From contig JAHFMX010000001.1 of assembly GCA_023267635.1 (NCBI GenBank), positions 3,800-67,799 on the forward strand: DNA of 64,000 bases, read 5' to 3'. Shown here piece after piece: positions 30,903 through 47,430 of this stretch (the first letter of the stretch is position 1; the number at the start of each line of letters is the position of its first letter). Origin of the DNA: a bacterium. Its GTDB lineage: Bacteria; Patescibacteriota; Minisyncoccia; Phycocordibacterales; UBA5272. The notes under the pieces are model-generated. The model made no database searches. It was not told the origin of the DNA and was given only the letters and a program-made list of their open reading frames with translations. Both the position numbers and the translations under genes were made by a program.

Positions 30903-30904
30903 AT

Positions 30905-33013: not shown

Positions 33014-33350
33014 AGAGTAATAGTAATTTTAGGTATATTTAAGGGGGTGATACCTTAATGTGACAACTATATAATAACATGAAAAAAAAGAATTCTCGCC
33101 TTGTTCTACAAAAATAATTATTAGTTTACAAAACCTAATCTTTAGTATAGTTAAAGGAAATGACTTAACTTTAACTATAGATATTTTATAGTTAAAGTTA
33201 GGACTCTATTTTTTTCTTTTTACCCAATACTTTTTATAAACAATATCAAACAAAATCCCAAAAGCTTCATCTACTTTTTTCTGGTCTTCTGCAGAAGAAT
33301 TTTTGTCATAAACATATGTTACTTTTATTTCTTTTTCTTTCTTCATACAG

Positions 33351-33944
33351 TTAATAAGAAAATCCTTCAGAAACAAAAGAATAGGCATTCGTTCGATTAG
33401 AAAAACTTATTGATATTGGTATAGTGTCCCCAGTCTCATCATCAAAGGTATCAAAAATAGATATTAAACTAATGTATATTTTTTGTATTGGGTCGTGGTC
33501 TTCTTGTTCTTTATAAACTCCACACAAACAGTCGTGTATTGATTTTATATAATCCCATAATGCAGTCCATATATCTTCTAAGGAAAGATTATCACTCTCT
33601 GCAATTTCTTTTTTTCGTTCATCTGTAACATCTTCTAAATAACATTTAATATCTTCATAAGACAATCCTAGTTTATTGAAATCAATAGTTTTATCTGATG
33701 ATACTTCAGTAAAAAAATCATTATGAATTCTGTTAGTAAAGTTTGTAACTATAAAAGAAGATGCAACTGCATATATAAACACTCTTCCTTTTTTGGTATC
33801 TCCGTCCGTTACAAGAAAACGATTATTTTTTTCAAATAATTTATAAGCATCTAACCCCCAATTGGACTCTTTTATATTATCACCCGTGTAGTCAGAGAGT
33901 TGATTAAAGGTGTCTACAAATATCTCTTTTGTTTCTTTTTCCAT
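33351..33944 (-). CDS. Hypothetical protein
   Basis: 197 aa, acidic, no motif recognised; stop/start adjacency with the upstream small membrane protein. Confidence 0.3.
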   Translation of the reverse strand: MEKETKEIFVDTFNQLSDYTGDNIKESNWGLDAYKLFEKNNRFLVTDGDTKKGRVFIYAVASSFIVTNFTNRIHNDFFTEVSSDKTIDFNKLGLSYEDIKCYLEDVTDERKKEIAESDNLSLEDIWTALWDYIKSIHDCLCGVYKEQEDHDPIQKIYISLISIFDTFDDETGDTIPISISFSNRTNAYSFVSEGFSY

Positions 33945-33947
33945 AAA

Positions 33948-34283
33948 CTATTTAATAACTTTCTTTGTGTTGCGAGCAGAGATTCTTCCAACTACAGCTT
34001 CACCTAAAGCAATTACCGCACCAATAAAAGCACTTATAGAGTAGCCGAAATTATATCGCACAAATGAAAAGTATATTATTCCCAAAAGACAAGCAACAAC
34101 ACTTATAAGTAAGACGAGATGTTTTGTCGTATTTTTATGGCTCGAATCAACTCCAAAATCTTTCAATACCTCTCTTACATCAGAAGATTTTAGTATTCTA
34201 ATCTTAAAGAAAATACCATCCCAGAGAGGCTTAAAAACACTATACGAAAAAAAGATAACGACCATCGCAATAATGAAAGTCAT
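33948..34283 (-). CDS. Small membrane protein (hypothetical)
   Basis: 111 aa, three hydrophobic helices. Confidence 0.3.
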   Translation of the reverse strand: MTFIIAMVVIFFSYSVFKPLWDGIFFKIRILKSSDVREVLKDFGVDSSHKNTTKHLVLLISVVACLLGIIYFSFVRYNFGYSISAFIGAVIALGEAVVGRISARNTKKVIK

Positions 34284-34521
34284 AAGAGGTTGTGTCTACT
34301 TGATAAACCCTCTAGGTAACTTATAAAACAAAATAGGCCCCCTAGTGGTGCTCACAAGAAGATGACCGAAGTCACGCATCCTGTTTCCACATAGAGAGCC
34401 TATGCTATACACGATGCGTAACAACCAACCCCCTTATAAGGGGTGTTTCGATATCTTCTTGTGAGCAAATGTATTATAGCACTTTCATGAAAAGATATTA
34501 AGTAAGTGATAGAATGATAAA

Positions 34522-35409
34522 ATGAATAAAGTAGACCATAAATTAAGCAATGAGTATTTGGAAGGTCTATTCAAAAACTGGTTTAATTTCAAGATAATAA
34601 AAATTTTAGCAGATGTCATAGAAGAAAACTTTAGCAAACAACAAATTACAGATATTTTAGAACCATTAGATGTTAAAGGTCTATCTATAAATAAAAATGA
34701 ATCCGAAAAAAATTCTATTCTAAAAATTTTTATTGACCTAAAAGAATACACTAAAACAAAAACATCCACAGAATACGAATACTATAGGGACACTATACTT
34801 GGAGTCCCTAATGGTGATGAAATGATAGTTTTCATCATAGAAGAGTTTATGGATTTATTTAATCATAAAATAAACAAAGTCCGTAGAAAGGCTTTTGCAG
34901 AATGGATAGGAGACATAGTTGCCCTCTGTAATTTAATTTTAGAAATTGATTCAGGTGATGACTACATAATATTAACACCAGATGAGTACAGAGACTTTTT
35001 ATATGAGAAAAAAGAAAAAGAACTCATTCAAAATAACCCTAATTATTTTGAAGAAATGTACGGTGGGACACCCACTAAAGACAATAGGCAAGTGATACAT
35101 ACTCTTGAAATACAAAAACTAGAAAATGAGTACGCAAAATTAACTGTTTTTATAAATAAAGAGTACGAAAAACCTATGACATTCAAAAGAGGTAAGAATT
35201 GGAGTTACATGTATAGCCTTGCACAAAATGAAGGAGTCTATGACCAGAAAGACTTTATGGATTATTTTAATTCTAATCAAACAAATCCTTTGTATAAAAG
35301 GTATGGGTTTGAGGTATCTAAAATTCTTAGACAAGAAAGTGGACAAATACTACCTAATATAAAAATTGAGATGATAACAAAGAAGAAAGTTACTCAAAAT
35401 AAAACTTAA
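34522..35409 (+). CDS. Hypothetical protein
   Basis: 295 aa; no motif recognised; followed by the terminator hairpin at 35447..35479. Confidence 0.35.
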   Translation: MNKVDHKLSNEYLEGLFKNWFNFKIIKILADVIEENFSKQQITDILEPLDVKGLSINKNESEKNSILKIFIDLKEYTKTKTSTEYEYYRDTILGVPNGDEMIVFIIEEFMDLFNHKINKVRRKAFAEWIGDIVALCNLILEIDSGDDYIILTPDEYRDFLYEKKEKELIQNNPNYFEEMYGGTPTKDNRQVIHTLEIQKLENEYAKLTVFINKEYEKPMTFKRGKNWSYMYSLAQNEGVYDQKDFMDYFNSNQTNPLYKRYGFEVSKILRQESGQILPNIKIEMITKKKVTQNKT

Positions 35410-35446
35410 GAAAAGGTAAAAAAACTTAAGGCTGTGGATAACTATG

Positions 35447-35479
35447 AAAAACACCACCGATGAGGTGTTTTTGTTTTGG
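35447..35479 (+). terminator. Rho-independent terminator
   Basis: aaaaacacc-accgatga-ggtgttttt hairpin followed by gttttgg. Confidence 0.55.
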
Positions 35480-35586
35480 TTAAAAAGATGGTCTTCCGCG
35501 TATTTTAAGCATAAATTAAATTCTAAAATTTACAAAGGCAAACAGAAAAGTAAATTGTTTGCACTTAATAATTAAATAGATAAATT

Positions 35587-37722
35587 ATGTTAGAAAACAT
35601 TATGTTAGTTGAGGCATTGAAGCTTCAAGAAATTGGCTGGAGTATTATTCCAGTTGGACAGGATAAAAAGCCGTTAATAAGCTGGGCTGAGTTCCAAGAA
35701 AGAAGGGCTAGTAAAGATGAGATAAAAGCATGGTTCAAGAAATTTCCTAAAGCAAATATAGGAGTTGTTACTGGACCAATATCTAATCTATTAGTTTTTG
35801 ATATTGACGCTAAACACGGGAGGACATCTGGAGAGTTCCAGTTCCCTGTAACAGTATGCTCAAATACTGGGGGTGGAGGAGAACATTACTTTTTTAAGTA
35901 TCCAAAGTTTGAAGTTCATAATTCAGCAGGATTACTTTTTGGCGAAGGGGTTGATATAAGAGGTAAAGGTGGTTACATTGTTTTACCACCATCTTTACAT
36001 TTATCTAGTAAGTATTATGAATGGAAAGAGTTTTGTTCTCCATTTGATTTAGAACTTGCTGATATACCCGAATGGTTAGAAACTGCGTTATCAAAACAAA
36101 GTAAAAAAGAAAGTCCAAAAATGTATGAAAAGGACTCATCTGAAATAATAGAAGGAACAAGAAATGATACCGCTGTATCTGTTGCTGGGAAGATTATAAG
36201 TGAGACATCAAAAGAATTAAGGAGTTCTGTTGGTTATAAAAAATTTATAAAATGGAATTCCTTGTTAAGTTCTCCTCTTTCAGAAGAAGAGTTAAAAGCT
36301 GTTTGGAAAAGTGTTTGTAAATATGACAATAAAGACGTATCTAATCTACTAAAAAACAAAGAAGCAAAAGAAGAAAAGAAAGTATATAAAACTTCATACT
36401 TTGATGGTAATTATCTTTATGAAATGGTTCATAATAAGGAATTAGACAAAACATTCTTTATTCGTTGTGACAGTAAAAATAATATAGACACTGTTGATAA
36501 AATAGCGTCAGGTGAAAGAGTGTATTTCCCATTACCTCCAACACATATGTTTGTTGATAAATCTGTCGTTCTATTCCCATCTGAAGTTGCACCATATCTC
36601 AATGAAAAAGAATTATTAAGTGAGATTCGTGCATTCATACATAAATATGTAGACATTAGTGAAGAGTTCGAAGAAATATCTACATATTATGTTTTACTAA
36701 CTTGGTTGTACGATAAGTTTTATGAACTTCCGTACCTTCGTGCTAGAGGTGACTATGGTAGTGGAAAATCTCGTTATTTAAAAACTGTTGGCTCAATATC
36801 ATACACACCAATATTTACAGCTGGAGCAACAACAGCAAGTCCTATATTTAGAATTATTGATGAAGTTAAAGGAACTCTAATACTAGATGAGGCTGACTTT
36901 GCGAAGAGTGATATGACTTCTGATATAGTAAAGATACTTAACACTGGATATCAGAAAGGTGTATCAGTTTTACGTGCTGAAGGTAAAGGAACTTTTGAGA
37001 TTAAAGCATATGAAGTCTTTGGTCCAAAAATTATTGCAACCAGAGAAAGTTTTTCTGATAGTGCTCTTGAGAGTCGCTTTCTTGTTGAGGAAATGGGGAA
37101 GAGTGATTTACGTGCAGATATACCGAGAGAAACTCGTAAAGGGTTTGATGAAGAAGCAAGAAATATCCGTAATAAACTTTTGAAGTGGAGGTTTGATAAT
37201 TACTTCCTTGAAGTAACAGCCAATACTGAAGTAATAAAAGGTATACATCCAAGGTTAAACCAAATAGTCCTACCTTTGTTATCAATCATTAAAAATGATG
37301 ATGCTAAAGAAAGTCTGAAAGAATTTATTGTTAAATATAATGATGACCTTATTGCCGATAGAGGACTCACCAAAGAAAGCGATATCATTTTCGCAATTCT
37401 AAAGTTAGAGCACAATGGATTTAATGAAAATCTATTTACTGTAAAACAGATATCAAATGAAGTAAATAAACTCATTGATGAAGAAATTGACCAGATAAGC
37501 CCACGCAAAATGGGGTGGTATTTGCGAAAAAAACTACAGCTGAAAACTGGCAAAACTCGTGCTGGTTATGTTCTTAATCTGGAGCAAAACAGAGATAGAG
37601 TTAACTTTTTAAAAGATAGGTATGGTATAGCAGACGAAGAAGTGTACGGTGAACAAGTGAACAATGTGAATGTCGTAAGCATTGCTGAGAGCATAATGGA
37701 GAATAATAAAAATATTCTCTAG
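35587..37722 (+). CDS. Bifunctional DNA primase/polymerase (Prim-Pol) N-terminal domain protein with C-terminal helicase-like/DUF region
   Basis: N-terminus GWSIIPVGQDKKPLISWAEFQ...NIGVVTGPISNLLVFDIDAKHG matches the Prim-Pol (bifunctional DNA primase/polymerase N-terminal) family and its catalytic DxD; 711 aa; adjacent to the recombinase. Confidence 0.6.
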   Translation: MLENIMLVEALKLQEIGWSIIPVGQDKKPLISWAEFQERRASKDEIKAWFKKFPKANIGVVTGPISNLLVFDIDAKHGRTSGEFQFPVTVCSNTGGGGEHYFFKYPKFEVHNSAGLLFGEGVDIRGKGGYIVLPPSLHLSSKYYEWKEFCSPFDLELADIPEWLETALSKQSKKESPKMYEKDSSEIIEGTRNDTAVSVAGKIISETSKELRSSVGYKKFIKWNSLLSSPLSEEELKAVWKSVCKYDNKDVSNLLKNKEAKEEKKVYKTSYFDGNYLYEMVHNKELDKTFFIRCDSKNNIDTVDKIASGERVYFPLPPTHMFVDKSVVLFPSEVAPYLNEKELLSEIRAFIHKYVDISEEFEEISTYYVLLTWLYDKFYELPYLRARGDYGSGKSRYLKTVGSISYTPIFTAGATTASPIFRIIDEVKGTLILDEADFAKSDMTSDIVKILNTGYQKGVSVLRAEGKGTFEIKAYEVFGPKIIATRESFSDSALESRFLVEEMGKSDLRADIPRETRKGFDEEARNIRNKLLKWRFDNYFLEVTANTEVIKGIHPRLNQIVLPLLSIIKNDDAKESLKEFIVKYNDDLIADRGLTKESDIIFAILKLEHNGFNENLFTVKQISNEVNKLIDEEIDQISPRKMGWYLRKKLQLKTGKTRAGYVLNLEQNRDRVNFLKDRYGIADEEVYGEQVNNVNVVSIAESIMENNKNIL

Positions 37723-37953
37723 TAGTTTTGAAAGTGGTACAATGGAAGAGCTACACAGACAAGACGAATATGACAGAAGATTGAATCCTGAAGGGGGTCT
37801 ACAATCGTCTTTGTGTAGCAACAATGTACTGTCTTGTAGTTCCCCTTCAGGTTTCTTTGATTCTAATCTCATTTCCGAAGAAGATGCTCTTGATTACCTT
37901 GCTGAGGTATATGTAGACATCTACTTCGATTATATTAAAAAACAAAAATAACC

Positions 37954-39492
37954 ATGCAACCTAATTTAAAAAGAGCTGTTGGATATTATCGTGTATCCAC
38001 AAAAGAACAAGTTGAGGAAGGGAACAGTCTTTCTACTCAAGAGAAAATTTGTAAAGAATGGTCTCGTAAAAATAATTACGAAATAGTAGAACAGTTTATT
38101 GAACAAGGAGAGAGTGCGAAAACTGCGGATAGAACAGAGTTACAAAAACTTTTTATTTATTGTGCTAATAAAAAGAATAACATTGAAGCTGTTATCATCT
38201 ACAAACTAGACCGTATAAGCCGTAACACTGATGACTACAGTCAAATTCGTCTTCTGTTAAAGAAATATGGGGTAGAAATAAAATCTACCACAGAGTTCTT
38301 TGAGGATACTCCTGTGGGTCGTTTTATGGAGAATACAATGGCTAACATTGCACAGTTTGATAACGATATACGCTCTGAGCGTTCAGGTGGCGGTATGCGA
38401 GAAGCTGTTCGTGATGGTCGTTATGTGTGGATGGCACCTGTTGGATATATCAATACTAAAGTAAATGGTAAAGCTACCATTGCTCAAGACCCACTAATGG
38501 CTTCACTTGTTCGTGAAACTTTTGAACTTATTTTAAAAGGCACTCGCACAGTAGAAGAGGTTCGAGTAATTATGGAAGAACGAGGTCTTACTCTTAAAAA
38601 TGGTAAACCACTTGGAAAGTCATACTTCTATAAAGTATTTAAGAATAAGCTATATATGGGGATAATTGAAAAGTTTAATGAAACCCACAAAGGTCTATTT
38701 GAACCAATCATCTCTGAGGATGTATTTAATCAAGTCCAACGTATTCTAAGTGGGAAAGGACGTAAGGAGGTTCAGTATAAAAAAGATAGTGATGATTTTC
38801 CTCTTCGTCGTTTTGTGATAGACAAAGAGAGTAGAAAAATTACTGGAAGTTTTTCAAAAGGAAGAAAAGGTATCAGATATCCATTCTATCGCTTTGGTGG
38901 GAACGGCTCGAATTATAACCGAGATAAATTTGAAGAGCGGTATCAATTATACGTAGATAAATTTTCTTTTACAGAAGAACAGAAGGAAAAATTAGCATCT
39001 AAGATACGAGAACATTTCGGTGTGGCAGTAGAGAAAGAAAAGAAGGATGTTAAAAAACTTTCTTTACGCATCTCTGAACTTCAAACACAACAAACCTCAC
39101 TTATAGATAAAAATCTTAAAGGCATTATTAGTGACGAATTACTCACAAGGCAACTTAGCACCATTGAAGAAGAGTTAATCAGTACAAAACTTAATCTCAC
39201 AAATGCAGAGCAAGTTACTTTTGATGTTGATAAGGCGATGAGTATAATTTCACCATTCCTGAAGACACCTAGTGAGGTGTGGGAGATGGCAGAAATTGAT
39301 AATAAACTCAAATTACAGTGGTTCCAATTCCCATCTGGAGTGTTCTTTGATGGAGAAATATTTGGAACCACTAAAGTAGCTAGTATTTACAATGTAAAAT
39401 CCACGTTTTTGGACGTGGATTCTACTGCTGTGGGCGATAGAGGAGTCGAACCTCTGACATCCACAACGTCAATGTGGCGCTCTACCAACTGA
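37954..39492 (+). CDS. Large serine recombinase (resolvase/invertase N-terminal domain + recombinase domain + zinc ribbon)
   Basis: N-terminus AVGYYRVSTKEQ (catalytic Ser motif) ...IYKLDRISRN; 512 aa; the last 62 nt (about 20 codons) overlap tRNA-Val on the opposite strand. Confidence 0.85.
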   Translation: MQPNLKRAVGYYRVSTKEQVEEGNSLSTQEKICKEWSRKNNYEIVEQFIEQGESAKTADRTELQKLFIYCANKKNNIEAVIIYKLDRISRNTDDYSQIRLLLKKYGVEIKSTTEFFEDTPVGRFMENTMANIAQFDNDIRSERSGGGMREAVRDGRYVWMAPVGYINTKVNGKATIAQDPLMASLVRETFELILKGTRTVEEVRVIMEERGLTLKNGKPLGKSYFYKVFKNKLYMGIIEKFNETHKGLFEPIISEDVFNQVQRILSGKGRKEVQYKKDSDDFPLRRFVIDKESRKITGSFSKGRKGIRYPFYRFGGNGSNYNRDKFEERYQLYVDKFSFTEEQKEKLASKIREHFGVAVEKEKKDVKKLSLRISELQTQQTSLIDKNLKGIISDELLTRQLSTIEEELISTKLNLTNAEQVTFDVDKAMSIISPFLKTPSEVWEMAEIDNKLKLQWFQFPSGVFFDGEIFGTTKVASIYNVKSTFLDVDSTAVGDRGVEPLTSTTSMWRSTN

Positions 39493-39503
39493 GCTAACCG
39501 CCC
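39431..39503 (-). tRNA. tRNA-Val (anticodon GAC)
   Basis: Hand-folded cloverleaf: acceptor GGGCGGT/ATCGCCC, D-arm GCTC-AGTTGGTA-GAGC, anticodon stem CCACA/TGTGG with loop TTGACGT, T-arm AGAGG-TTCGACT-CCTCT, discriminator A; no encoded CCA. Confidence 0.8.
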
Positions 39504-39544
39504 GAATGTCTTAAATATACCATATCAAATAGACCTCTCCCAAG

Positions 39545-39573
39545 TTGAAAGAAGTGTCATTTCGTGGTAGTAT
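39545..39573 (+). promoter_or_regulatory. Sigma70-like promoter upstream of tRNA-Glu (TTGAAA-17-TAGTAT)
   Basis: -35 ttgaaa at 39545..39550, 17-nt spacer, -10 tagtat at 39568..39573, about 45 nt upstream of the tRNA. Confidence 0.4.
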
Positions 39574-39620
39574 ATTTTTTACTTGGCTGTACTATTGTTA
39601 CCTGGTACAGACATATTGAC

Positions 39621-39692
39621 GGCCCCATCGTCTATCGGTTAGGACACCGGCTTTTCATGCCGGTAAGCGGAGTTCGACTCTCCGTGGGGTCA
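39621..39692 (+). tRNA. tRNA-Glu (anticodon TTC)
   Basis: Acceptor GGCCCCA/TGGGGTC, anticodon stem CCGGC/GCCGG with loop TTTTCAT, T-arm CGGAG-TTCGACT-CTCCG, discriminator A. Confidence 0.8.
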
Positions 39693-39798
39693 CCGAGTCG
39701 AGTGCTAGTTCGAGCACTCGAGAAGGGTCGTCACAGACCCTAAAAACAAAAAGAGCTAACGAATATTTCGTTAGCTCTTTTTGTTAGAAAAGTTACTT

Positions 39799-41082
39799 TT
39801 ACACTTGAATAGAAATAGTTTTATTTTTCAAAACTAAGTTACTTTTTATACAATCAAGAACCGACCTTTTTTCTAAAACTGTCCCATCCCTCAAAACAAA
39901 TTTCATATAATTTCTCAAGTCTACTTTTTGTATATCTGCTGTATTATCTTTTCCCAAAAACATTGCTTGCAGTTTCTTAAATTTCTTGATTTCAAGATTT
40001 AACTTCTCGTTGAGTTGTACCTCGTTAAGATCTAGAGTGCTTGCCATTTTCTGAAATTCTTTCAGCAGATCATCTTCGTTTATAGCAGAATTTGTACACT
40101 TTCTGTCTTTGGATTTCGTACATCGATAATATACATGTCTGTTTACTCCGCCACTTTTTAATTTCTTAAATTTCTCATCTGCTGTAATTCCAGATCCACA
40201 TGCTCCGCATTTAACTATTCGAGTAAAGGCAAATTCCTTTCCGTGACTTTTAATAACCTGTGTCTTAATAGAAGCACGAACATCATCGAAGAGTTCTTTT
40301 GTTATTATCGGCTCATGTTTACCCTCGTACCAATTTCCACTTCCCTGTGGGAATTCAAATCTACCGTAATAGAAAGTATTATTGATAATTTTAAAGATGT
40401 TTCCGATACTTAAATAAAACCCTCGATGTGTCTTAAAGTTAATTTCATATCTTAGCCATGAATATACTCTCATGCCACTCCATCTTTCATATGCAATCTT
40501 CTCAAATATCTGCTTAATAATCGGTGCGCGATCCGGATCAATTTCAACCTCACATTTTGCTAGTCTTTCATTTGGTTTTCTGTATCCAGTTGGTGGTTGT
40601 ACTGGCCATAGTCCCATTTCGCACCTTGCTCTCATTCCTCTTTTAACATTAATACTTTTATTATCATTCTCCAACTTCGCTTGAGAACAAAGAATCATTA
40701 AAAGAAACTTATCACTCGGAGAGTTAGTAAATGTCTGACCAAATGTTTTAATTTGAGCTAGTTTCTTTTGATCTATTCTATCTACAAGCTTCCCCAGATC
40801 TCCTGCATTTCTCGAAAGTCTATCGGGTGCCCAAGTAATTATTGCGTTAAAGATACCATCATCAATATCTTTTAAAATCTCTTCAAACACGGGCCGTTGC
40901 CCCGACTCTTTCGCCGAGTGAGATTCTTTTCTTATTTCTGTAACATTCAAACCTTCACGCTCGGCTATTTGCCTCATCTCTTTAATTTGAGAATCAATAG
41001 AAAGAGCTTGTTTTTCTTCAGCTTCGGTTGATTTACGAGCATATAAACAATACTTTAAGTTATCTTTTGTTGTTTCTATCAT
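39799..41082 (-). CDS. Large serine recombinase (paralog of 60687..62006)
   Basis: KYCLYARKSTE (catalytic Ser), SIDSQ, TWAPDRLSRNAGDLG, C-terminal CGACGSG zinc ribbon; 427 aa. Confidence 0.85.
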   Translation of the reverse strand: MIETTKDNLKYCLYARKSTEAEEKQALSIDSQIKEMRQIAEREGLNVTEIRKESHSAKESGQRPVFEEILKDIDDGIFNAIITWAPDRLSRNAGDLGKLVDRIDQKKLAQIKTFGQTFTNSPSDKFLLMILCSQAKLENDNKSINVKRGMRARCEMGLWPVQPPTGYRKPNERLAKCEVEIDPDRAPIIKQIFEKIAYERWSGMRVYSWLRYEINFKTHRGFYLSIGNIFKIINNTFYYGRFEFPQGSGNWYEGKHEPIITKELFDDVRASIKTQVIKSHGKEFAFTRIVKCGACGSGITADEKFKKLKSGGVNRHVYYRCTKSKDRKCTNSAINEDDLLKEFQKMASTLDLNEVQLNEKLNLEIKKFKKLQAMFLGKDNTADIQKVDLRNYMKFVLRDGTVLEKRSVLDCIKSNLVLKNKTISIQV

Positions 41083-41390: not shown

Positions 41391-43097
41391 ATGTCTCACA
41401 ACAACTCTGAAAAAGAGCTTTTAGCTCATATAAGTGATCTCGAAAAACAAGTTAAGGTCTTGAAAGACCGGAAGAAATTTGGACTGGTTTGGGAGGATAA
41501 ACCGGAAGATGTCGTTTTACAATGCGAAACAAATGTTCCAATTCTGAGAGAGATTAAAAATAGAAAGTTAGTTTCTGATAATCATATACATTCCAATATT
41601 TTAGTCGAAGGAGATAATTATCACTCACTTTCTGTTTTGAACTATACACATAAGAGTAAGATCGATTTAATTTATATTGATCCACCGTATAACACAGGCG
41701 CAACAGATTGGAGATATAACAATGATTATGTTGATAGCAATGATCAATGGCGACACAGCAAGTGGATTTCTTTAATGAGAAATCGACTATCTTTAGCAAA
41801 AAATCTTCTATCAGAAAGAGGAATAATTTATTGTGCTATCGATCACTATGAATTGTTCACACTAGGATTGCTGTGTGATGAAATTTTTGGTGAATCAAAC
41901 AGACTTGGCGTTATAACGGTTATTCATAAACCTGAAGGAAGACAATTTGCTAACTTCTTTAGCCCATCGAATGAGTTTATGTTGGTATATGCAAAAAATA
42001 AGGCGTATGCTTCTTTAAACCAAGTAATTTTAGATGATGAACAGAAGGAACGTTTTTCTGAGTTTGATGATAAGGGATCGTATTATCTAAAAAACTTTAT
42101 AAGATTGACTGATGGTAAATATAGTCTGAGAGAAAATGCTCCTGATGGTTTTTATCCAATATACGTCAGTGAAGATCTAGGCTCATTTAGTTTAGAAAAT
42201 AAGAAAGGTTACCTCGAAGTATACCCAATTACAGACAGAGGTGTAGAAAGAACATGGAAAACCTATGGGGACACTTTTATGAAGAAAGTGGATGAAGGAA
42301 ACATTATTGCAAAATCAGAAAATGGAAAGATAAATATATACGAAAAGCTTCGTGAAGATCAGGTTATTAAAACCCATTGGAATAAAAAAGAATATCACGC
42401 ATATCATTACGGGACAAAGATTATTGAAGAAATACTAGGAGTCAAAAAGTTTGACTTCCCAAAGTCATTAAACCTTCTCATTGATGTTTTAAAACTAAGC
42501 ACACAAAAAGATTCAACAGTTTTAGACTTCTTTGCGGGATCAGGAACAACTGGACATGCAGTTTTGGAGCTCAACAAACAAGATGGCGGAAATAGAAGGT
42601 TCATCCTCTGTACCAATAATGAAAACCAGATTGCTGAGGAAGTTACTTACGAACGCATCAAGCGTGTAATCAAAGGATACAAGAATAAGAAAGGAGAAAA
42701 AGTTGAAGGACTTGGAGGTAATTTGTCGTACTACAAAACTGATGTCGTAGATATTGAAAGACTGCAGAGGATTTCAGACGAATCAAAGATCAAGATCACG
42801 TATCAAGCAGGAGAAATGATTGCTATTCGTGAGAATACTTTAAATGAATACGACAAAAACGATTGGTGGCAGATTTTTGAAAACGAAGAAAAGAAAACTG
42901 CTATTTATTTCAAGGAAGATAAATCAAAACTTCCTGAGCTGGTAAAACTTCTTGAAAAAGAAAACAAGCCGACCGTTCTTTATATCTTTGGCTGGGGTAA
43001 GAACGAATACAAAAACGAGTATTCGACCAAGAATATAAAAGTCGAAGATATTCCAGAACCAATTATTGAGGTCTATAAAGAAATAAATAGAATTTAA
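41391..43097 (+). CDS. Type III R-M system DNA methyltransferase (Mod), beta-class
   Basis: Motif IV IYIDPPYNTG precedes motif I DFFAGSGTTGHAV; 568 aa; 4-nt gap to the downstream helicase-nuclease. Confidence 0.7.
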   Translation: MSHNNSEKELLAHISDLEKQVKVLKDRKKFGLVWEDKPEDVVLQCETNVPILREIKNRKLVSDNHIHSNILVEGDNYHSLSVLNYTHKSKIDLIYIDPPYNTGATDWRYNNDYVDSNDQWRHSKWISLMRNRLSLAKNLLSERGIIYCAIDHYELFTLGLLCDEIFGESNRLGVITVIHKPEGRQFANFFSPSNEFMLVYAKNKAYASLNQVILDDEQKERFSEFDDKGSYYLKNFIRLTDGKYSLRENAPDGFYPIYVSEDLGSFSLENKKGYLEVYPITDRGVERTWKTYGDTFMKKVDEGNIIAKSENGKINIYEKLREDQVIKTHWNKKEYHAYHYGTKIIEEILGVKKFDFPKSLNLLIDVLKLSTQKDSTVLDFFAGSGTTGHAVLELNKQDGGNRRFILCTNNENQIAEEVTYERIKRVIKGYKNKKGEKVEGLGGNLSYYKTDVVDIERLQRISDESKIKITYQAGEMIAIRENTLNEYDKNDWWQIFENEEKKTAIYFKEDKSKLPELVKLLEKENKPTVLYIFGWGKNEYKNEYSTKNIKVEDIPEPIIEVYKEINRI

Positions 43098-43101
43098 TCA
43101 T

Positions 43102-45429
43102 ATGTTTGCACTTAAACCATTCCAAGAAACAGCGATAGCTAAACTGAAGGATCAGTTTCTTTCATTATGGAAATCGCCACACGATAACATACCTCTTATC
43201 TTTAAATCTCCAACCGGATCAGGGAAAACGATCATGCTAGCCCAATTTCTCCGTGATCTTATAGGAGATCCTCGATTTTATGGAAACGATGTTGCCTTTG
43301 TATGGCTTACTTTTAACGAAGAATCGTATGTACAAAGTAAAAACAAACTCTTTTCATACTATGGTGGTGCTTCCGAACTAGACCTTTTGGATCTTAACGA
43401 CCTCACCAGAGGAAAATTGAATAAAAATTCTGTTTTCTTTATCAACTGGCAAAAAGTCAAAGGAAAATCAAAAGAAAGTAGAAAACTCCGAAAAGATAAT
43501 GAGTGGGGTTTAACCTTTGATAGTTTTATAGAAAAAACAAAAAATGACGGTCGCAAGTTTGTAGTAATAATCGACGAAGAACATATTGGATCCGATACAG
43601 AGCTTGCACAGGAAATCATTGATGGCCTTATTCAGCCGAAAATAACTATCCGTGTTTCTGCTACACCTAAATATCTCCCAAACGCAGAAGATATCGCTGA
43701 ACAAAAAGGTGGATTTGTGCAAGCAAAGCGAGAAGATGTTATTGAAGCAGGACTGATTAAGGAAAAGATTATTTTCCAGACGGAAGAAGATCTCAATCGA
43801 AAGGACTTCAAAGGAATGGATCAGGACGAAATTCTTCTTGAACTTGCATACCAAAAGCGATTAGATCTCATTGAATACTATAAAGAGGTCGGTGTCGAAG
43901 TGAATCCTCTTGTAATGATCCAGCTCCCCAATGACGATCAAGCAAGCAAAGATATAACTACAACTAATAAACAATCTATAGTTCTTAGCTATTTTAAAGA
44001 AAAAGGAGTGTTGGAAGATGAAATTGCTATTTGGCTTTCTCAGGAAAAAATAAACTTAGAATCCATCGAGGATAATAAGTCACCAATATCATTCTTACTC
44101 TTTAAACAAGCCGCTGCTACTGGCTGGGATTGCCCCAGAGCGAGTGTTTTAGTTATGTTCAGAGAGATCAGAAACCCAACATTCGCTATTCAAACTGTTG
44201 GTCGTATTTTGCGTATGCCTTTTGGTATACATTTTGCAATACCAGAATTGAATCTTGGTTATCTATACACGAACTACAAGCGAAATGAGGTGTTAGCAGA
44301 ATATGGAAAGAATAAGACCGACAATCGTCCTGCTATTTATGGAAGTTATAGAAAACCAGAGATTGAATCAATAACAGTTGAATCGGTATTTATGAGCCGA
44401 ACTGATTATAATGACCTCGGAGACTCTTTCCAAGAGACATTTAATGAAGTGGCAAACAAATACTTTGGAATTGGAAAGGATAATCCTGCTCAGGTAATCA
44501 AGAAACTAGAAGCAAAGAGTTTAGAAACTAAACCAAGTGTCACTAATGGTCTTATCGTAGGAGTTGAAATTGACGACTATGATAATTTCACCAAAGAACT
44601 AATTACTGAAGGAGGAAGCCATGACCAAGAAATATCTCAGCATGATCTTGAGCGACTTTATAATTTGCTTTGTTTTAAATTTGTCTCTCATCAAGCTGAT
44701 GAAAACAAAAAGTTTGCTCCTGAACGATCTTGGGGCAAGTTAAAGACAGCACTTAATGTGTGGCTCTTAAAAGTAACTGGAGAAAATCGTCAGAATATCT
44801 ACAAGATTGTAGTAAACGATCTGCTCAGCCCGACAAGCATATTTGCTCCTATTATTGGTATGGCTCTTGAGCAATATCGTCCAATTCGTGAGAAAGAAGT
44901 AAACAAAAAATCTGAACGTTCAAAGCGAGTTGAAACTATCGAGATTCCACGAGAGACACTTTTCTTCACGGATCAGTATGAAGAGATAGAAGTTAAAAAG
45001 TGTGCTATGCAACCTTTTTATATCGAGAAAGATTATAAAGGGGAAGACAATGAAAAAGAGTTTATTAAATTCCTTGAATCAAGCAAAGACGTAGTTTGGT
45101 GGTATAAAAATGGAGATTCAGGAAGTGAGTTCTTTTCGATTTCTTATTATAATCAAGACGAAAATAAGGAAAAACTTTTTTACCCCGATTGGATATTTAG
45201 GACAAAAGATACCGTTTATATCGTAGACACAAAGAAAGGATCTACTGCTGAAATATCCGATACTAAATACAAAGCAGAAGCATTGCAAGAATGGCTTAAA
45301 AGCAAGAAAAACTTTGCAGGAGGTATTGTTGTTCAAGACGGCCCAAACGGCTGGAAGATCAACCAGAATGACAAATACTCTTACACTCCCTCTTTTGATA
45401 AATGGAACAACTTGAAAGATGTTCTATGA
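43102..45429 (+). CDS. Type III restriction enzyme Res subunit (helicase + C-terminal PD-(D/E)xK)
   Basis: Walker A SPTGSGKT, DEEH box IIDEEH, C-terminal YPDWIFRTKDTVYIVDTKKG nuclease motif. Confidence 0.65.
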   Translation: MFALKPFQETAIAKLKDQFLSLWKSPHDNIPLIFKSPTGSGKTIMLAQFLRDLIGDPRFYGNDVAFVWLTFNEESYVQSKNKLFSYYGGASELDLLDLNDLTRGKLNKNSVFFINWQKVKGKSKESRKLRKDNEWGLTFDSFIEKTKNDGRKFVVIIDEEHIGSDTELAQEIIDGLIQPKITIRVSATPKYLPNAEDIAEQKGGFVQAKREDVIEAGLIKEKIIFQTEEDLNRKDFKGMDQDEILLELAYQKRLDLIEYYKEVGVEVNPLVMIQLPNDDQASKDITTTNKQSIVLSYFKEKGVLEDEIAIWLSQEKINLESIEDNKSPISFLLFKQAAATGWDCPRASVLVMFREIRNPTFAIQTVGRILRMPFGIHFAIPELNLGYLYTNYKRNEVLAEYGKNKTDNRPAIYGSYRKPEIESITVESVFMSRTDYNDLGDSFQETFNEVANKYFGIGKDNPAQVIKKLEAKSLETKPSVTNGLIVGVEIDDYDNFTKELITEGGSHDQEISQHDLERLYNLLCFKFVSHQADENKKFAPERSWGKLKTALNVWLLKVTGENRQNIYKIVVNDLLSPTSIFAPIIGMALEQYRPIREKEVNKKSERSKRVETIEIPRETLFFTDQYEEIEVKKCAMQPFYIEKDYKGEDNEKEFIKFLESSKDVVWWYKNGDSGSEFFSISYYNQDENKEKLFYPDWIFRTKDTVYIVDTKKGSTAEISDTKYKAEALQEWLKSKKNFAGGIVVQDGPNGWKINQNDKYSYTPSFDKWNNLKDVL

Positions 45430-45489: not shown

Positions 45490-46545
45490 TTAGTCAGTAT
45501 TACTCATGGTAAAGAAATAATTATTCTTTAACCTCTCAGAAAATCTGTAAGTATCAGCATGAGAAAGAACGCCGAGATAGGACATTAAAGTTGCATGTAC
45601 TTTGTCTTTTGGGATTTCTTCTCGCTTATAGAGTAATATCTTTTCATTTATTTTCCGCAAAGCACGTTTCTGTGTACGCTTACGAACCAAAGTAAAATGT
45701 GGGAATAATACATATCCAAGATAATCAATACCACGATTAAATTTAGTAATCGAGATTTTCTTCGGGTGTATTTGGATCTTCATTTTTTCTTTTAGAAAAG
45801 AACGTATCTGAGACAATAAATGTATGAGATATTCTTTATTCTCGCTTACTACAACAAAGTCATCAGTATATCGTGCATAATGTTTCACCTTGAGTTCGTG
45901 CTTCATAAATTGATCAAAAACATCCATATACACATTCGCAAAAAGTTGAGACGTTAAGTTACCAATTGGTAAACCGCATCTCTCAAAGAGAGTAGATCTA
46001 CTACTTGTAAAACTTTCCACCACTTCTGTCAGGAGGTCCATCAGTTCCTGGTCCTTGATCCGGGAATCAAGCATGGAAAGTAAAATCTCGTGATTAATTG
46101 AATCGAAAAACTTCTCTATATCGCACTTCAAAATATATACATTTCTTGTGTTATTTTTACTTGCTTTGTAGAGCATGGAACGTAGCGCGCTAACTCCTTT
46201 ATGAGTACCTTTACCAATACGACACGAGAAAGAATTATAAATAAAAGTCTTCTCATAGAGTGGGTATAAAGTACTCATGATTGCATGATGAAGTACTCTG
46301 TCTCTCACTTGCGCTTTATGTATATGGCGACGTTTAGGATCTGAAATATAGAACCCGGTATACCCACTGTGGCGATAGGTATGAGATTTTAGTTCTCTGT
46401 GAAGCGAGAATATTTCTCGTTCAAGACTTTTCTCAAAAAGAAGTACATCCGCTTTCTTTTTCTTGTCACGCCTGAACTCTTCCCAAGCGAAAAACAGATT
46501 TTCTGGAGTAATAAGCTTATTAAATAAATTCGTATAGATTCTCAT
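45490..46545 (-). CDS. Diversity-generating retroelement (DGR) reverse transcriptase
   Basis: RT motifs; YARYTDDFVVV (YxDD catalytic box); LPIGNLTSQLFANVYM (the IGxxxSQ motif characteristic of DGR RTs); lies next to Avd, TR and VR. The track lists 45490..46605; the likely start is MRIYTNLF... at 46545. Confidence 0.8.
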   Translation of the reverse strand: MRIYTNLFNKLITPENLFFAWEEFRRDKKKKADVLLFEKSLEREIFSLHRELKSHTYRHSGYTGFYISDPKRRHIHKAQVRDRVLHHAIMSTLYPLYEKTFIYNSFSCRIGKGTHKGVSALRSMLYKASKNNTRNVYILKCDIEKFFDSINHEILLSMLDSRIKDQELMDLLTEVVESFTSSRSTLFERCGLPIGNLTSQLFANVYMDVFDQFMKHELKVKHYARYTDDFVVVSENKEYLIHLLSQIRSFLKEKMKIQIHPKKISITKFNRGIDYLGYVLFPHFTLVRKRTQKRALRKINEKILLYKREEIPKDKVHATLMSYLGVLSHADTYRFSERLKNNYFFTMSNTD

Positions 46546-46890
46546 ATGAATGATAATGATGTTCCAATATTGCGTAAAATTCATGAGTTGTATAAGACAT
46601 TCCATGAATACAGAAATCTAGTTCCCAAACAAGAACGATTCTCTGTGTACGAACGTACAGAAAATATCATCATTGATATCCTTGAGCTTGTGCTTGAGGC
46701 AAGTTATATTCCCAAAGAAAGAAAAGTAATTCTTCTAGAAAAGACGAGCGTAAAACTCAATATCGTGAGATTTTTTATTCGTCTTATGAAAGAAAGTAAA
46801 AGTCTTGATCTGAAGAAATATACACTCCTGCAAGGAATCATTGATGAGGTTGGTCGTATGCTTGGTGGCTGGATAAAGTCTAGTAAGTAA
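46546..46890 (+). CDS. Accessory variability determinant (Avd) of the DGR
   Basis: 114 aa, helical, C-terminal ...DEVGRMLGGWIKSSK resembles the Bordetella phage bAvd C-terminus (EVGRxLGxW) as recalled. On the opposite strand to the RT; the two start codons abut in CATATG. Confidence 0.55.
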   Translation: MNDNDVPILRKIHELYKTFHEYRNLVPKQERFSVYERTENIIIDILELVLEASYIPKERKVILLEKTSVKLNIVRFFIRLMKESKSLDLKKYTLLQGIIDEVGRMLGGWIKSSK

Positions 46891-46939
46891 TAACAAAAGG
46901 TATCCGCTACGGATACCTTTTGCGCTTAATTGATACTTC

Positions 46940-47374: not shown

Positions 47375-47430
47375 ATTCAAGGGTTCAAGGATCAAGGAGC
47401 CAGAAGACTCAAGACCCCAAGGTGGAAGGA

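Follow-up and report, generated by a model that had tools for sequence, protein, structure and literature searches.

SSV1-type archaeal integrases carry their attP inside int, and integration at a tRNA gene partitions int until excision restores it. In the mycobacteriophages BPs and Brujita and those of cluster P, which show integration-dependent immunity, the attP lies in the 3′ end of a gene (Broussard et al., 2013; PMC3694055); the split gene is that of the repressor, the enzyme is a tyrosine integrase and an ssrA-like degradation tag is lost (PMC3694055). Tyrosine chemistry is also used by the Islander/TIGER-type islands and prophages (Williams, 2002) and by 910 of 937 tycheposons of Prochlorococcus (cryptic elements included), which leave partial tRNA copies (Hackl et al.; bioRxiv 10.1101/2020.12.28.424599). 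Sites of serine integrases have been described as protein-coding or intergenic (PMC5357655, PMC10654092), and the term tRNA does not occur in a large survey of large serine recombinases (LSRs; PMC10083194).

Within the 64,000 nucleotides analysed here (the window), a divergent pair of tRNA genes stands between serine-recombinase elements, and comparison of sequences indicates that both outward-facing tRNA 3′ ends are chromosomal attachment sites used by LSR elements in a Patescibacteria-type genome. Unlike the serine integrases described, these LSRs target the extreme 3′ ends of tRNAs. Our full reading, to which we give a probability of about 0.85, is that LSR elements lie at both tRNAs, that the attP of the first lies within its own recombinase gene, LSR1, and that integration splits this gene. 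The target genes and elements are as follows.

39430..39503, minus strand: tRNA-Val(GAC), host gene, target of element 1 (ARAGORN, Rfam)
39621..39694, plus strand: tRNA-Glu(TTC), host gene, target of elements 2 and 3 (ARAGORN, Rfam)
19230..39429: element 1, integrated low-G+C serine-recombinase element, 20.2 kb (GTGG cores, G+C, relatives without the element)
~39,695-54,120: element 2, 14.4 kb (junction cores, conserved terminal segments)
54126..64000: element 3, of the LSR2/3 type, in tandem with element 2 and leaving the window (match to contig L044, LSR3)

The tRNA genes score 67.7 bits (tRNA-Val) and 55.1 bits (tRNA-Glu) against an Rfam gathering score of 29. A sequence-only reading of this DNA had proposed a hotspot with the pair sandwiched between two such elements, and the proposal is borne out by the circular relatives, the unoccupied sites and the conserved termini of the elements described below; the tRNA-Val call, which it regarded as a point where it might fail, was accepted by both tools. 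Mobile elements do lie on both sides, but the borders it drew at 20.6 kb and 54.8 kb are really at 19,226-19,229 and ~54,120-54,125, and a third element sits in tandem on the tRNA-Glu side, beyond the two that it named.

The junctions of element 1 and the features at its recombinase end are these.

19226..19229: distal junction (attL), core GTGG (match to 39430-39433; switch point in circular relative L039)
39430..39433: proximal junction (attR), core GTGG, equal to tRNA-Val C71-C72-A73 and the next base
37954..39492, plus strand: LSR1, large serine recombinase, integrated form, 512 aa (Resolvase and Recombinase domains)
19226..19300 (coding piece 19,226-19,297), plus strand: displaced LSR1 3′ end, encoding VDYGHEFWNQVAKEIEYLAWVLKE and a stop (tblastn with free-form tails)
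37742..37951, plus strand: conserved 69-aa ORF directly 5′ of LSR1 (tblastn across the family)
39396..39420, minus (tRNA) strand: hairpin ATCCACG/CGTGGAT with a short T-run, inside the LSR1 coding sequence (inspection)

G+C falls near 20 kb from ~0.41 to ~0.33, which leaves element 1 ~8 points below its left flank. The two GTGG cores lie 20,204 bp apart and are the sole sequence common to both junctions (19226 and 39430), and both junctions are identical in two independent assemblies of other samples, L028 (ERZ27279977) and L038 (SRR14366791). The GTGG of the element's own attP recombined with the last bases of tRNA-Val (...CCAC); the empty junction would then read CCATTCTTCGGTGGGCGATAGAGG and the circle junction TCTACTGCTGTGGACTACGGGCAC. 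A long attL/attR repeat of 40-60 nt had been expected at element 1 and is absent because the crossover falls in the last 4 nt of tRNA-Val (GTGG = tRNA ...CCAC). That no direct repeat of the tRNA-Val 3′ segment had been seen by eye agrees with our search, in which 39380-39800 matched the rest of the window over no more than 14 nt. Very short identity between attachment sites is normal for serine recombinases. Like Islander/TIGER-type islands, these elements insert at a tRNA gene on its 3′ side without destroying it, have the integrase gene next to the tRNA and stack up in tandem at a single tRNA; the serine enzymes here, however, are unrelated, no tRNA fragment is displaced and no long repeat is present, the identity amounts to 4-6 bp only, and the element supplies no tRNA 3′ half but, at the most, discriminator and trailer bases.

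LSR1 has a full-length Resolvase domain (Pfam, E 1e-32) and a Recombinase domain; its zinc-ribbon region is without cysteines and did not match Pfam Zn_ribbon_recom. As had been noticed, its 3′ end lies inside tRNA-Val: the last 62-63 nt of 37954..39492, stop included, run antisense to the tRNA, so that the last 21 codons are antisense tRNA-Val and the stop, a TGA, is read from the strand opposite GCTCAGT in the D-arm. This overlap is an integration footprint, as the earlier reading held, but the element neither carries nor reconstitutes a 40-60 nt piece of the tRNA; the part of the tRNA that the ORF covers belongs to the host. Within LSR1 the attP falls on the codons for Val-Asp (GTG GAC), 24 codons upstream of the excised-form stop; therefore integration splits the gene and changes the protein end, and the chromosomal ORF continues through antisense tRNA-Val. 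Integration has placed the 24-codon piece for an amphipathic tail helix at the far end of the element, 20 kb away, and excision rebuilds the full gene, as in the circular relatives. An attP inside its own coding sequence sets LSR1 apart from phage serine integrases and recalls SSV1, in which a recombinase gene with its own attP is likewise split at tRNA integration. The SSV1-type enzymes are tyrosine recombinases of archaeal viruses, with large gene parts separated, whereas LSR1 loses only its last 24 codons and keeps its catalytic and DNA-binding domains on one ORF. BPs, Brujita and cluster P are alike in that integration at a tRNA site alters a protein C-terminus, so that the integrated and the free state differ biochemically (PMC3694055), but in element 1 it is the recombinase gene that is split and the tail is a conserved amphipathic helix; no degradation tag was identified.

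The family of LSR1 repeats this arrangement. An antisense-tRNA peptide ends 84 of the best 120 database homologues by a pattern-based sort, and among 27 loci in other genomes 20 have a homologue whose 3′ end overlaps an antisense tRNA (Ala(TGC) 15 times; Ala(CGC), Ala(GGC), Leu, Tyr and Glu once each); therefore the LSR1/tRNA-Val overlap is not due to chance. The exact LSR1 protein is absent from the public collection. There are two kinds of tail: tRNA-fused and free forms are homologous up to the Val-Asp codons and diverge precisely there. Free-form tails match a single place in the window, 19226..19300 (tblastn, E 2e-11), and in nine family loci the severed tail is found on the same strand, 4.4-10 kb upstream. 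Each of the nine paired junctions analysed shows GTGG at either end, and GTGGAC is common to the eight at tRNA-Ala. Given this usual target, with a core of 6 bp rather than 4, the insertion at tRNA-Val could be off-target and poorly excised. Four homologues, on Bacteroidota-labelled contigs, keep the tail intact and are not near any tRNA.

Three relatives are circular. One of them, L039 (7,006 bp), has contig ends that overlap by 30 nt and are bridged by an independent contig (L040); it matches window positions 37735-39433 (84%) and then directly 19225-19293 (85.5%). Two further free-form contigs, of 12,193 and 10,378 bp, are circular as well, the LSR gene is unbroken in all three (7.0, 10.4 and 12.2 kb), and none of them holds a tRNA gene. 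In the AlphaFold model of a free form 88% identical to LSR1, the top structural matches are full-length serine integrase-DNA complexes (9dxd, 9iu2 (Bxb1), 9rah (phiC31) and 4kis), and the order is catalytic domain, recombinase domain, zinc-ribbon-like region with a long coiled coil, linker and terminal helix (residues 496-517), the linker at the junction being of low confidence. The phage enzymes phiC31, Bxb1, A118/LI integrase and TP901-1 share the order of catalytic, recombinase and zinc-ribbon-type domain with coiled coil, and in them as in the LSRs here attachment sites are short with few bases in common.

Does the exchange of tails matter to the enzyme? Tail remnants of 10 integrated loci are free of in-frame stops, whereas the other frames contain 23 and 11; their pN/pS is 0.12-0.49, also for the part more than 27 bp from the core. 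An intact remnant under purifying selection across integrated copies requires frequent passage through an excised, translated state. The tail is probably important to the enzyme of the excised form, and its exchange would make the integrated and excised enzymes functionally different; if so, it could serve as a built-in state sensor or a means of directionality control. We consider it possible, if rather unlikely, that integration is real but the swap functionally meaningless, the tail being kept solely as an arm of DNA to which the recombinase binds. The first ~27 bp after the core (codons 1-9, with an invariant TTYTGGAA) lie where an attP arm is expected, and therefore part of the conservation could act as DNA; moreover, the model shows the tail as one helix attached by a flexible linker, with moderate confidence. 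Codons 10-23, however, lie beyond a typical arm and still show a pN/pS of ~0.47 (0.12-0.2 in the closest pairs), the frame is open in every remnant, and the pattern E-x-x-Y/x-L-x-x-I-L is retained in free forms at 50-55% identity, all of which speaks against that reading.

That the 19-39 kb block is instead fixed, with a domesticated or decaying recombinase and tRNAs that merely mark variable gene content, we regard as improbable. The exact sequence is known in integrated form only: no sign of excision of this element was found in contigs or at read level, L028 and L038 both show it integrated, an exact search of viral contigs with the reconstructed attP gave no match, a same-strain empty site was not found, and a first metagenome scan with the flanking peptidase as query returned no match. 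Against fixation, LSR1 is an intact ORF whose catalytic domain is complete, the severed tail is intact and under purifying selection, three close or moderate relatives are circles of 7-12 kb, the block differs in G+C from its left flank, and relatives with an identical tRNA-Val are without it. The comparison with relatives lacking the insertion, which the sequence-only reading had suggested, thus yielded unoccupied tRNA-Val sites: the 3′ half of the gene is identical in 13 metagenome contigs, all without LSR1, although these are other strains with flanking proteins 58-78% identical. Two of them (L042 and L050) keep the left-flank order of SPOUT-methylase homologue, tRNA-Val and tRNA-Glu, and in L045 tRNA-Val is adjoined by a homologue of window gene 15504-16685.

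Two smaller features accompany integrated LSR1. The 69-aa ORF occupies the same position before the recombinase in ~20 of 28 family loci, integrated and circular (tblastn), is 68-69% identical in L039 and L001, has no Pfam match and may be an accessory or directionality factor. The hairpin and T-run opposite the LSR1 3′ coding region are a candidate replacement for the displaced terminator of tRNA-Val. By inspection, such a hairpin lies ~12 nt beyond the tRNA end in ~13 of 20 family loci, with compensatory stem changes, and is weak or absent in ~7; reconstructed empty sites have native terminator hairpins at the same position, and a consensus terminator scan did not call the hairpin at 39396..39420.

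Element 1 carries the following cargo.

22860..25537, minus strand: candidate defence genes, a PDC-S39 match (22860-23840; PADLOC E 9e-17) and a PDC-S18 match (24596-25537; PADLOC E 3e-93)
23930-24583, plus strand: unassigned ORF between these two matches
25691..28183, plus strand: UvrD/GajB-like helicase with a topoisomerase-type zinc ribbon (Pfam UvrD-helicase, E 1e-44; PADLOC GajB and RTasHel models, ~1e-45)
28218..33013, minus strand: type III restriction-modification, Res 28218-30902 and Mod 30905-33013 (Pfam ResIII, N6_N4_Mtase; PADLOC REase_III E 4e-21, MTase_III E 7e-119)
35587..37722, plus strand: primase-polymerase, putative replication function (Pfam Prim-Pol, E 1e-30; also PHROG DNA primase and primase/polymerase families)

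Tycheposons are similar in being modular cargo elements with a site-specific integrase and replication genes (primase-polymerase, helicase), inserted at few tRNA genes of a small genome and building islands by accretion; here the recombinases are serine enzymes, no tRNA fragment is left and the host belongs to the Patescibacteria.

On the other side of the pair lies element 2.

39690..39694: proximal junction, core TCAC(C) (homology stop in unoccupied relatives)
39695..39798: terminal module, from tRNA-Glu to the LSR2 stop (conserved beside LSR2 homologues)
39799..41082, minus strand: LSR2, large serine recombinase, 427 aa (Resolvase, Recombinase and Zn_ribbon_recom domains)
41391..45429, plus strand: type III restriction-modification, Mod 41391-43097 and Res 43102-45429 (Pfam N6_N4_Mtase, ResIII)
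45490..48366: diversity-generating retroelement (DGR; RVT_1, bAvd, repeat pair)
45490-46605, minus strand: DGR RT gene (RVT_1)
46546-46890, plus strand: DGR bAvd
46940-47067 and 47441-47568: DGR template repeat and variable repeat
47431-48366, minus strand: DGR target ORF, its 3′ end holding the variable repeat
48507..51739, minus strand: phage-like genes (PHROG)
48507-50063, minus strand: large terminase (PHROG terminase large subunit, E 9e-79)
49993-50490, minus strand: small terminase (PHROG terminase small subunit, E 1e-8)
50393-51739, minus strand: ParB-methyltransferase (PHROG DNA methyltransferase/ParB-like families, E 3e-85)
53988..54125: distal terminal segment, end core TCAC(C) at 54121-54125 (conserved in relatives)

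LSR2, correctly placed beyond tRNA-Glu by the earlier reading, ends 104 nt from that gene and is only 25% identical to LSR1; all 8000 candidates that were scored proved to be homologues, and the best 120 are 75-100% identical to LSR2. The recombination site of element 2 is outside the recombinase gene and downstream of it, unlike that of element 1. The element used TCAC(C) at the tRNA-Glu end, with an attP ~105 nt downstream of the LSR2 stop. In unoccupied relatives homology to the window ends at 39692-39694, and the terminal module, with a conserved hairpin (~39700-39722) and a terminator-like inverted repeat (39745-39785), is missing from unoccupied sites and kept in L030, L033 and L063-L068. 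At the far end, 53988..54125 is 79% identical to the far-end segment of 3.1-kb LSR2-type elements (L063-L067), and this homology stops directly after aggCTCAC, the flanks differing beyond. The DGR repeats are 84% identical, with 18 of 20 mismatches at template adenines, and bAvd and RVT_1 are recorded on the identical contig L028.

It is very improbable that the tRNAs are borne by a phage or plasmid, the locus being one composite element without a chromosomal hotspot. Mobile elements often have tRNA genes, the entire 19-64 kb looks mobile, and in L033 tRNA-Glu stands beside an LSR2 homologue with different neighbours on its other side; yet the pair occurs beside housekeeping-type neighbours in relatives that have none of these recombinases (L042, L045, L050), the circular free forms are without tRNA, and the LSR2 module, which adjoins tRNA-Glu in L033, is joined to tRNA-Arg at ...TCAC in L064-L066 and L068, so that the tRNA varies with the host while the module stays constant. 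The divergent pairing of tRNA-Val and tRNA-Glu is retained in L041-L047 and L050, and relatives have two unrelated LSRs (~25% identity) that overlap either this tRNA-Val (L052) or this tRNA-Glu (L051).

That the LSR1 overlap merely reflects how the ORF was called, with the recombinase ending upstream, the frame open by chance and no tRNA connection, is scarcely credible: some frame of an antisense tRNA is often stop-free, and the last 21 LSR1 residues have no fold of their own, with low model confidence before the junction, but the idea is contradicted by recurrence in 20 of 27 independent loci at six tRNA species, by the exact Val-Asp break, by the missing tail at the far element end in the window and nine other loci, and by the joining of the two ends in a circular relative.

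Element 3 follows element 2 directly, and its recombinase is of the same family.

60687-62006, minus strand: LSR3, serine recombinase of element 3 (domain matches)

Window positions 54126-54143 match the sequence directly 3′ of tRNA-Glu in L044, a contig that carries an LSR 81% identical to LSR3, and the DNA beyond LSR3 on its right side is matched in L034 and L035 by the regions upstream of their LSRs. The cargo before LSR3 comprises ArsR, an FMN reductase, an NmrA-like protein, GST, a glyoxalase and a P-type metal ATPase.

ARAGORN calls two tRNA genes in the window, divergent and with their 3′ ends pointing outward, around which lie three elements, each with a large serine recombinase (LSR):

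37954-39492, + strand: LSR1, 512 aa, with a full Resolvase domain and a Recombinase domain
39430-39503, - strand: tRNA-Val(GAC), found by ARAGORN and Rfam well above threshold
39621-39694, + strand: tRNA-Glu(TTC), found by ARAGORN and Rfam well above threshold
39799-41082, - strand: LSR2, 427 aa, with Resolvase, Recombinase and Zn_ribbon_recom domains
60687-62006, - strand: LSR3, about 68% identical to LSR2 in nucleotide sequence

The sequence-only reading had one recombinase gene ending inside tRNA-Val and a second just beyond tRNA-Glu, and both statements hold: by ARAGORN, Rfam and the ORF coordinates the final 62-63 nt of LSR1 are antisense to tRNA-Val, and LSR2 ends 104 nt past tRNA-Glu. 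All three enzymes match PF00239 over its full length (LSR1, E 1e-32, motif YYRVSTKEQ; LSR2, E 2e-21; LSR3, E 8e-21), and the resolvase-type catalytic domain is present with its nucleophilic serine, S15 and the neighbouring residues being invariant in a 58-sequence alignment. LSR2 and LSR3 have both PF07508 and PF13408 and LSR1 has PF07508 only; its zinc-ribbon region has no cysteines, and in the model beta hairpins there lead into two long helices (residues 341-419). LSR1 and LSR2 are only 25% identical. The LSR1 model matches full-length integrase complexes with a Foldseek E of 7e-18 but a TM-score of only ~0.34. By domain content and fold the window enzymes are classed as large serine recombinases, LSR1 less certainly in its zinc-ribbon and coiled-coil part, and their elements behave like site-specific integrative elements.

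How does an integrase gene come to end within a tRNA gene? The overlap had been taken for the classic footprint of an element that carries a repeat of the tRNA 3′ part, of which no second copy had been seen by eye, and none exists in the window: the longest match of 39380-39800 elsewhere in the window by blastn-short is 14 nt. A long attL/attR repeat is not to be expected because the enzyme is a serine recombinase, and with no match above 14 nt we dropped it as the footprint. What stands of that interpretation is the integration itself; its mechanism and boundaries had to be corrected, the core being GTGG only. A tRNA island of the Islander type, made by a tyrosine integrase, was rejected, as the subset of ORFs scanned between 19 and 54 kb held serine recombinases and no tyrosine recombinase, and there is no repeated tRNA fragment.

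The junctions of element 1 were located through the C-termini of LSR1 homologues, which are common in Patescibacteria-type assemblies (1,439 of 8,000 scored candidates were significant). The best 120 homologues, 52-88% identical, fall into two classes that split exactly after a conserved Val-Asp. An antisense-tRNA tail of ~20 residues (e.g., VDPTGLEPATPSLQMRCSTR) was assigned to 84 of them by a pattern-based sort, and about 25 have another conserved tail, VD(Y/F/L)G..FWNQ..KE.EYL..(I/V)L, which we call the free form (12 by direct motif match and ~13 more assigned by eye), the remainder being short or unclassified. With tblastn this second tail has a single match in the window, at 19226-19297 (+), which reads VDYGHEFWNQVAKEIEYLAWVLKE and then a stop, and which is not translated there because an in-frame stop precedes it. 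The junction at 39430, from LSR1 into tRNA-Val, is ...TCTACTGCT GTGG GCGATAGAGG... and that at 19226, from the host flank into the tail, is ...CATTCTTCG GTGG ACTACGGGCAC...; they share GTGG and nothing more, and the crossover must therefore fall within these four bases, which in tRNA-Val are the two final bases of the acceptor stem, the discriminator and the base after it. An ORF ending ...DSTAVDYGHEFWNQVAKEIEYLAWVLKE, in agreement with the free-form homologues, results when the LSR1 side is put together with the tail side, and the host flank put together with the tRNA side gives an intact tRNA-Val ending ...GCCCACC. The attP so reconstructed is TCTACTGCTGTGGACTACGGGCAC and the empty attB is CCATTCTTCGGTGGGCGATAGAGG, which places the attP of LSR1 inside its own gene.

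The reconstruction has natural counterparts. The LSR of contig L039 has 88% protein identity to LSR1, and the contig is a 7,006-bp circle by a 30-nt terminal overlap, its ends bridged by an independent contig (L040) from another run. It matches window positions 37735-39433 (84%) and then, without a break, 19225-19293 (85.5%), and is a natural attP uniting homologues of both window ends. Two more free-form contigs are circular (L070 and L071; 12,193 and 10,378 bp), and none of the three circles has a tRNA gene. The circular form with its two ends united is thus seen for these relatives, and the window copy is seen only integrated. PHROGs gave no informative match on the circular relatives' proteins to mark them as plasmid or virus, a scan of viral contigs found no LSR1 relatives, an exact search of viral contigs found no copy of the reconstructed attP, and no exact record of the LSR1 protein turned up in public assemblies.

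Among species-representative genomes the 3′ end of the homologue overlaps an antisense tRNA in 20 of 27 loci, the target being tRNA-Ala(TGC) in 15 and Ala(CGC), Ala(GGC), Leu(TAG), Tyr(GTA) and Glu(TTC) in one each. Nine loci keep the displaced tail piece, in the same orientation and 4.4-10 kb upstream, and all nine paired junctions analyzed have GTGG at both ends, with GTGGAC common to the eight at tRNA-Ala. The closest genomic relative (L001, 87% identity) is at tRNA-Ala(TGC), not tRNA-Val, and the tRNA-side arms of its site and that of the window have 17 of 26 bases in common. The family's usual target being tRNA-Ala, the insertion at tRNA-Val may have been off-target. Comparisons of dyad symmetry in the element 1 attP arms and of the P′ and B′ arms gave weak hints only (GAACC in both, at slightly different spacing). 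LSR1 homologues are also found on four contigs labeled Bacteroidota, including a 5.6-Mb chromosome, with best-segment identities of 51-57% (L007, L013 and L018) and 75% (L026); the ORF runs straight into the free-form tail in L007, L018 and L026, and none of the four loci has a tRNA within 10 kb.

Is the displaced tail of any consequence to the element? Not one in-frame stop occurs over 22 codons in the tail remnants from ten integrated loci, versus 23 and 11 in the other frames, and their pN/pS averages ~0.45 (0.12-0.22 for the three closest of the pairs compared, at most 0.49 for the other two). It is 0.47 for codons 10-23, which are outside the reach of a normal recombinase-binding arm. A coding signature in untranslated remnants suggests that the elements pass often through an excised state in which the tail is translated, and the pN/pS values and stop-free frame argue that the tail matters to the free-form protein and that the elements are active. 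Modeled with AlphaFold (mean pLDDT 83), the free form consists, in order, of the catalytic domain, the recombinase domain, the cysteine-less beta-hairpin region with its two long helices (341-419), further helices, a linker and a terminal helix. The linker (489-493) is of low confidence and falls right at the junction, the terminal helix spans 496-517, and the top structural matches of the model are full-length serine integrase-DNA complexes.

A more far-reaching reading, unlikely at a probability of roughly 0.2, is that the tail swap is a built-in directionality or state switch, combined with a replacement terminator for the tRNA and easy retargeting via features of tRNA 3′ ends. The full-length enzyme, with its amphipathic tail helix, would be made from the circle only and would perform integration, and the chromosomal enzyme, with its antisense-tRNA-encoded tail, would have another activity, stability or partner binding, for example with a 69-aa protein encoded upstream. 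The element's own topology would then govern integration and excision, with a separate directionality factor no longer the sole control. The tRNA terminator would come from the opposite strand of the LSR1 coding region, and the family might recognize features common to tRNA 3′ ends and so be easily retargeted; enzymes that are 87% identical do occupy tRNA-Val and tRNA-Ala. The narrower proposal, that the swap gives the integrated enzyme an activity, stability or partner binding unlike that of the excised one, we likewise rate as unlikely. The closest analogues of the intragenic attP are the SSV-type archaeal tyrosine integrases and the phages with integration-dependent immunity (PMC3694055), in which the repressor gene is split, whereas here it is the recombinase gene. 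We rejected an identity with the latter system because of that difference and because the free tails are varied and without an ssrA-like -AA end; the likeness is functional only.

The 69-aa ORF lies ahead of the recombinase at the same position in ~20 of 28 family loci, integrated and circular; we found no known domain in it and regard it as a candidate accessory factor. The cores of element 1 are 20,204 bp apart, and its G+C is ~0.33 compared to ~0.41 in the left flank. Besides this ORF and LSR1 it has two candidate defense genes (PDC-S39 and PDC-S18 by PADLOC), a UvrD/GajB-like helicase, a type III restriction-modification pair, a primase-polymerase and several unknown genes. Within the LSR1 coding region, on the tRNA strand and ~12 nt beyond the tRNA end, is a hairpin followed by a T-run (ATCCACG-loop-CGTGGAT-TTTAC, at 39396-39420). 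By inspection, like hairpins with compensatory stem changes are present in ~13 of 20 loci and some loci have none, and a simple terminator scan did not call the window copy. Reconstructed empty sites have native tRNA terminator hairpins at the same position, which suggests that element 1 probably supplies tRNA-Val with a replacement terminator. This likely second use of a recombinase coding region, as the terminator of a tRNA on the opposite strand, is unlike the described cases that we found. Rfam at a relaxed threshold gave nothing besides the tRNAs in 39000-42000 and 19200-20700, and a repeat search of 19200-20700 gave nothing notable.

The sequence-only reading regarded the tRNA pair as a double integration hotspot, which related genomes with the same gene content and no empty site would have contradicted. 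A metagenome scan for a same-species empty site with the left-flank peptidase found no relatives. When metagenome contigs were scanned for exact matches to the 3′ half of this tRNA-Val, 13 were found, none with LSR1, and most of them retain the divergent Val/Glu pair. In two of the related loci (L042 and L050) a homologue of the SPOUT methylase at window 17745-18218, with 73% protein identity in L050, is followed by ~178 nt, tRNA-Val and then tRNA-Glu, and in L045 a homologue of the window gene at 15504-16685 adjoins tRNA-Val; in all three, similarity to the window ends at the tRNA-Glu 3′ end (39692-39694). Unoccupied sites are thus found, in relatives that are not of the same strain. A different LSR (524 aa, ~25% identical) stands in L052 at the end of an insertion of ~7.8 kb and reaches 8 nt into the same tRNA-Val, and the LSR of L051 (575 aa), different again, has its 3′ end in antisense tRNA-Glu. 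Other LSRs at the same tRNAs, as in L052, mark the site as a true hotspot, and together with the unoccupied relatives they bear out the earlier claim. Unoccupied tRNA-Val sites also have a palindromic arrangement of ~70 nt, in which the 3′ acceptor strand and terminator hairpin combine with a copy of the tRNA 3′ end in inverted orientation (9-25 nt, e.g., ...GTTCGACTCCTCTATCGCCTCAC) 50-70 nt before the tRNA-Val 3′ end (L043, L044, L047, L048, L053 and L042, L046, L050, L051). It could be the scar of an earlier element, a convergent tRNA remnant or part of the target.

The LSR2 family is very widespread and very conserved, all 8,000 scored candidates being homologous and the best 120 being 75-100% identical. 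LSR2, a terminator-like repeat and the hairpin GAGTGCTAGTTCGAGCACTC form a module that adjoins tRNA-Glu in the window and the viral contig L033, tRNA-Arg(GCG) in L064-L066 and L068, and tRNA-Gln in L036 (a 57% homologue), always with the junction at ...TCAC of the tRNA. The distal boundary of element 2 was set from the loci L063-L067: a 138-nt segment at its far end (53988-54125) is 79% identical to the far end of their elements, and this homology ends right after aggCTCAC, where the flanks diverge. TCAC(C) occurs at 39690-39694 and 54121-54125, for an element of 14.4 kb with attP ...GAGAAGGCTCACCGAGTCGAGTGC and attB ...CCGTGGGGTCACCTTCAACAGC. The cores are short throughout, GTGG in element 1, GTGGAC at the tRNA-Ala loci and TCAC(C) in element 2, with no longer repeat. 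The attP of element 2 is ~105 nt downstream of the LSR2 stop and, being outside the gene, entails no tail swap.

The cargo of element 2 includes a second type III restriction-modification system, large and small terminase, a ParB-methylase and an M78 peptidase, with no recognizable capsid or tail genes, and a diversity-generating retroelement:

45490-48366: the retroelement as a whole
46546-46890: bAvd
46940-47067: template repeat
47441-47568: variable repeat, at the 3′ end of the ORF 47431-48366

The retroelement is complete, with an RVT_1 reverse transcriptase, bAvd and template and variable repeats that are 84% identical, 18 of the 20 mismatches being at template adenines. Its local G+C of 0.56 stands out. 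An ORF of 90 aa at 52386-52658 resembles a Cas2-like Pfam family weakly (E 2e-4, short of the curated cut-off) and matches phrog_1090, of unknown function, well. In L063-L066 the LSR2-type element is ~3.1 kb and its sole cargo is an Asn/Asp-tRNA-synthetase-like gene (tRNA_anti-codon and tRNA-synt_2; ~2433-3725 in L063-L065); in L064 the same frame as that of element 2, at 3.1 kb, holds this gene only. Here a gene of possibly essential type is carried by mobile DNA next to a tRNA gene. In L030-L032 the module is joined, past the LSR2 homologue, to a degenerate tRNA-Glu-like 3′ half, TCTCTGTAGGGTCAC, which is not a tRNA, and then comes unrelated sequence in which a 31-nt stretch is directly repeated; a free attP and a tandem junction are possible explanations.

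Element 3 follows in tandem, from 54,126 to beyond the window end, with genes for ArsR (54817-55113), an FMN reductase, an NmrA-like protein, a GST, a glyoxalase and a P-type metal ATPase (57784-59898). Immediately past tRNA-Glu in L044, a related locus that has an LSR 81% identical to LSR3 4.5 kb further on, the sequence (AACAACAGCTAGCACGAG) agrees with the 18 nt that follow the distal core of element 2 (TTCAACAGCTAGCACGAG). Element 2 has therefore arrived between tRNA-Glu and an older element 3. Serine-recombinase-borne DNA makes up at least 45 kb of the 64-kb window, built by accretion around just two tRNAs and carrying in all two type III restriction-modification systems, candidate defense genes, a diversity-generating retroelement and metal/redox stress genes.

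Surveys assign serine integrases to coding or intergenic targets and leave tRNAs to tyrosine integrases (PMC5357655, PMC10654092), and in a large LSR survey the term tRNA never occurs (PMC10083194), whereas the targets in the window are tRNA 3′ ends. Tycheposons have a similar lifestyle but mostly use tyrosine recombinases. In the limited literature covered we found no tRNA-targeting serine integrase whose attP is intragenic, although an earlier description is possible. The window locus and its relatives show at least four mutually distant lineages of Patescibacteria serine recombinases at the last few tRNA bases, among them one large family, with hundreds of database members, whose attP lies inside its own gene. 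Its excised and integrated enzymes are a natural isoform pair, the comparison of which could reveal how directionality is controlled. Serine integrases are major tools of genome engineering. Every genome has tRNA 3′ ends, which are short and conserved, and an enzyme that inserts at them without damage to the tRNA could be a useful landing-pad tool, including for Patescibacteria.

Two further features were noted near LSR3 and the start of element 3. A LOOT RNA (Rfam RF03000, 83 bits) at 62172-62293 lies upstream of LSR3, divergent from it, and overlaps the start of an ORF at 62275-63108; no LOOT match was found upstream of LSR2 and nothing useful on this RNA in the literature, and ~50-70 nt upstream of LSR2 and LSR3 are alike (41082-41152 versus 62009-62056). 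Just inside element 3, at 54185-54220, where ARAGORN calls no tRNA, the sequence ...CCAAGAATCGAACCTCCTCTGCGGTGCG resembles an antisense tRNA T-arm and may be a tRNA fragment from an older insertion.
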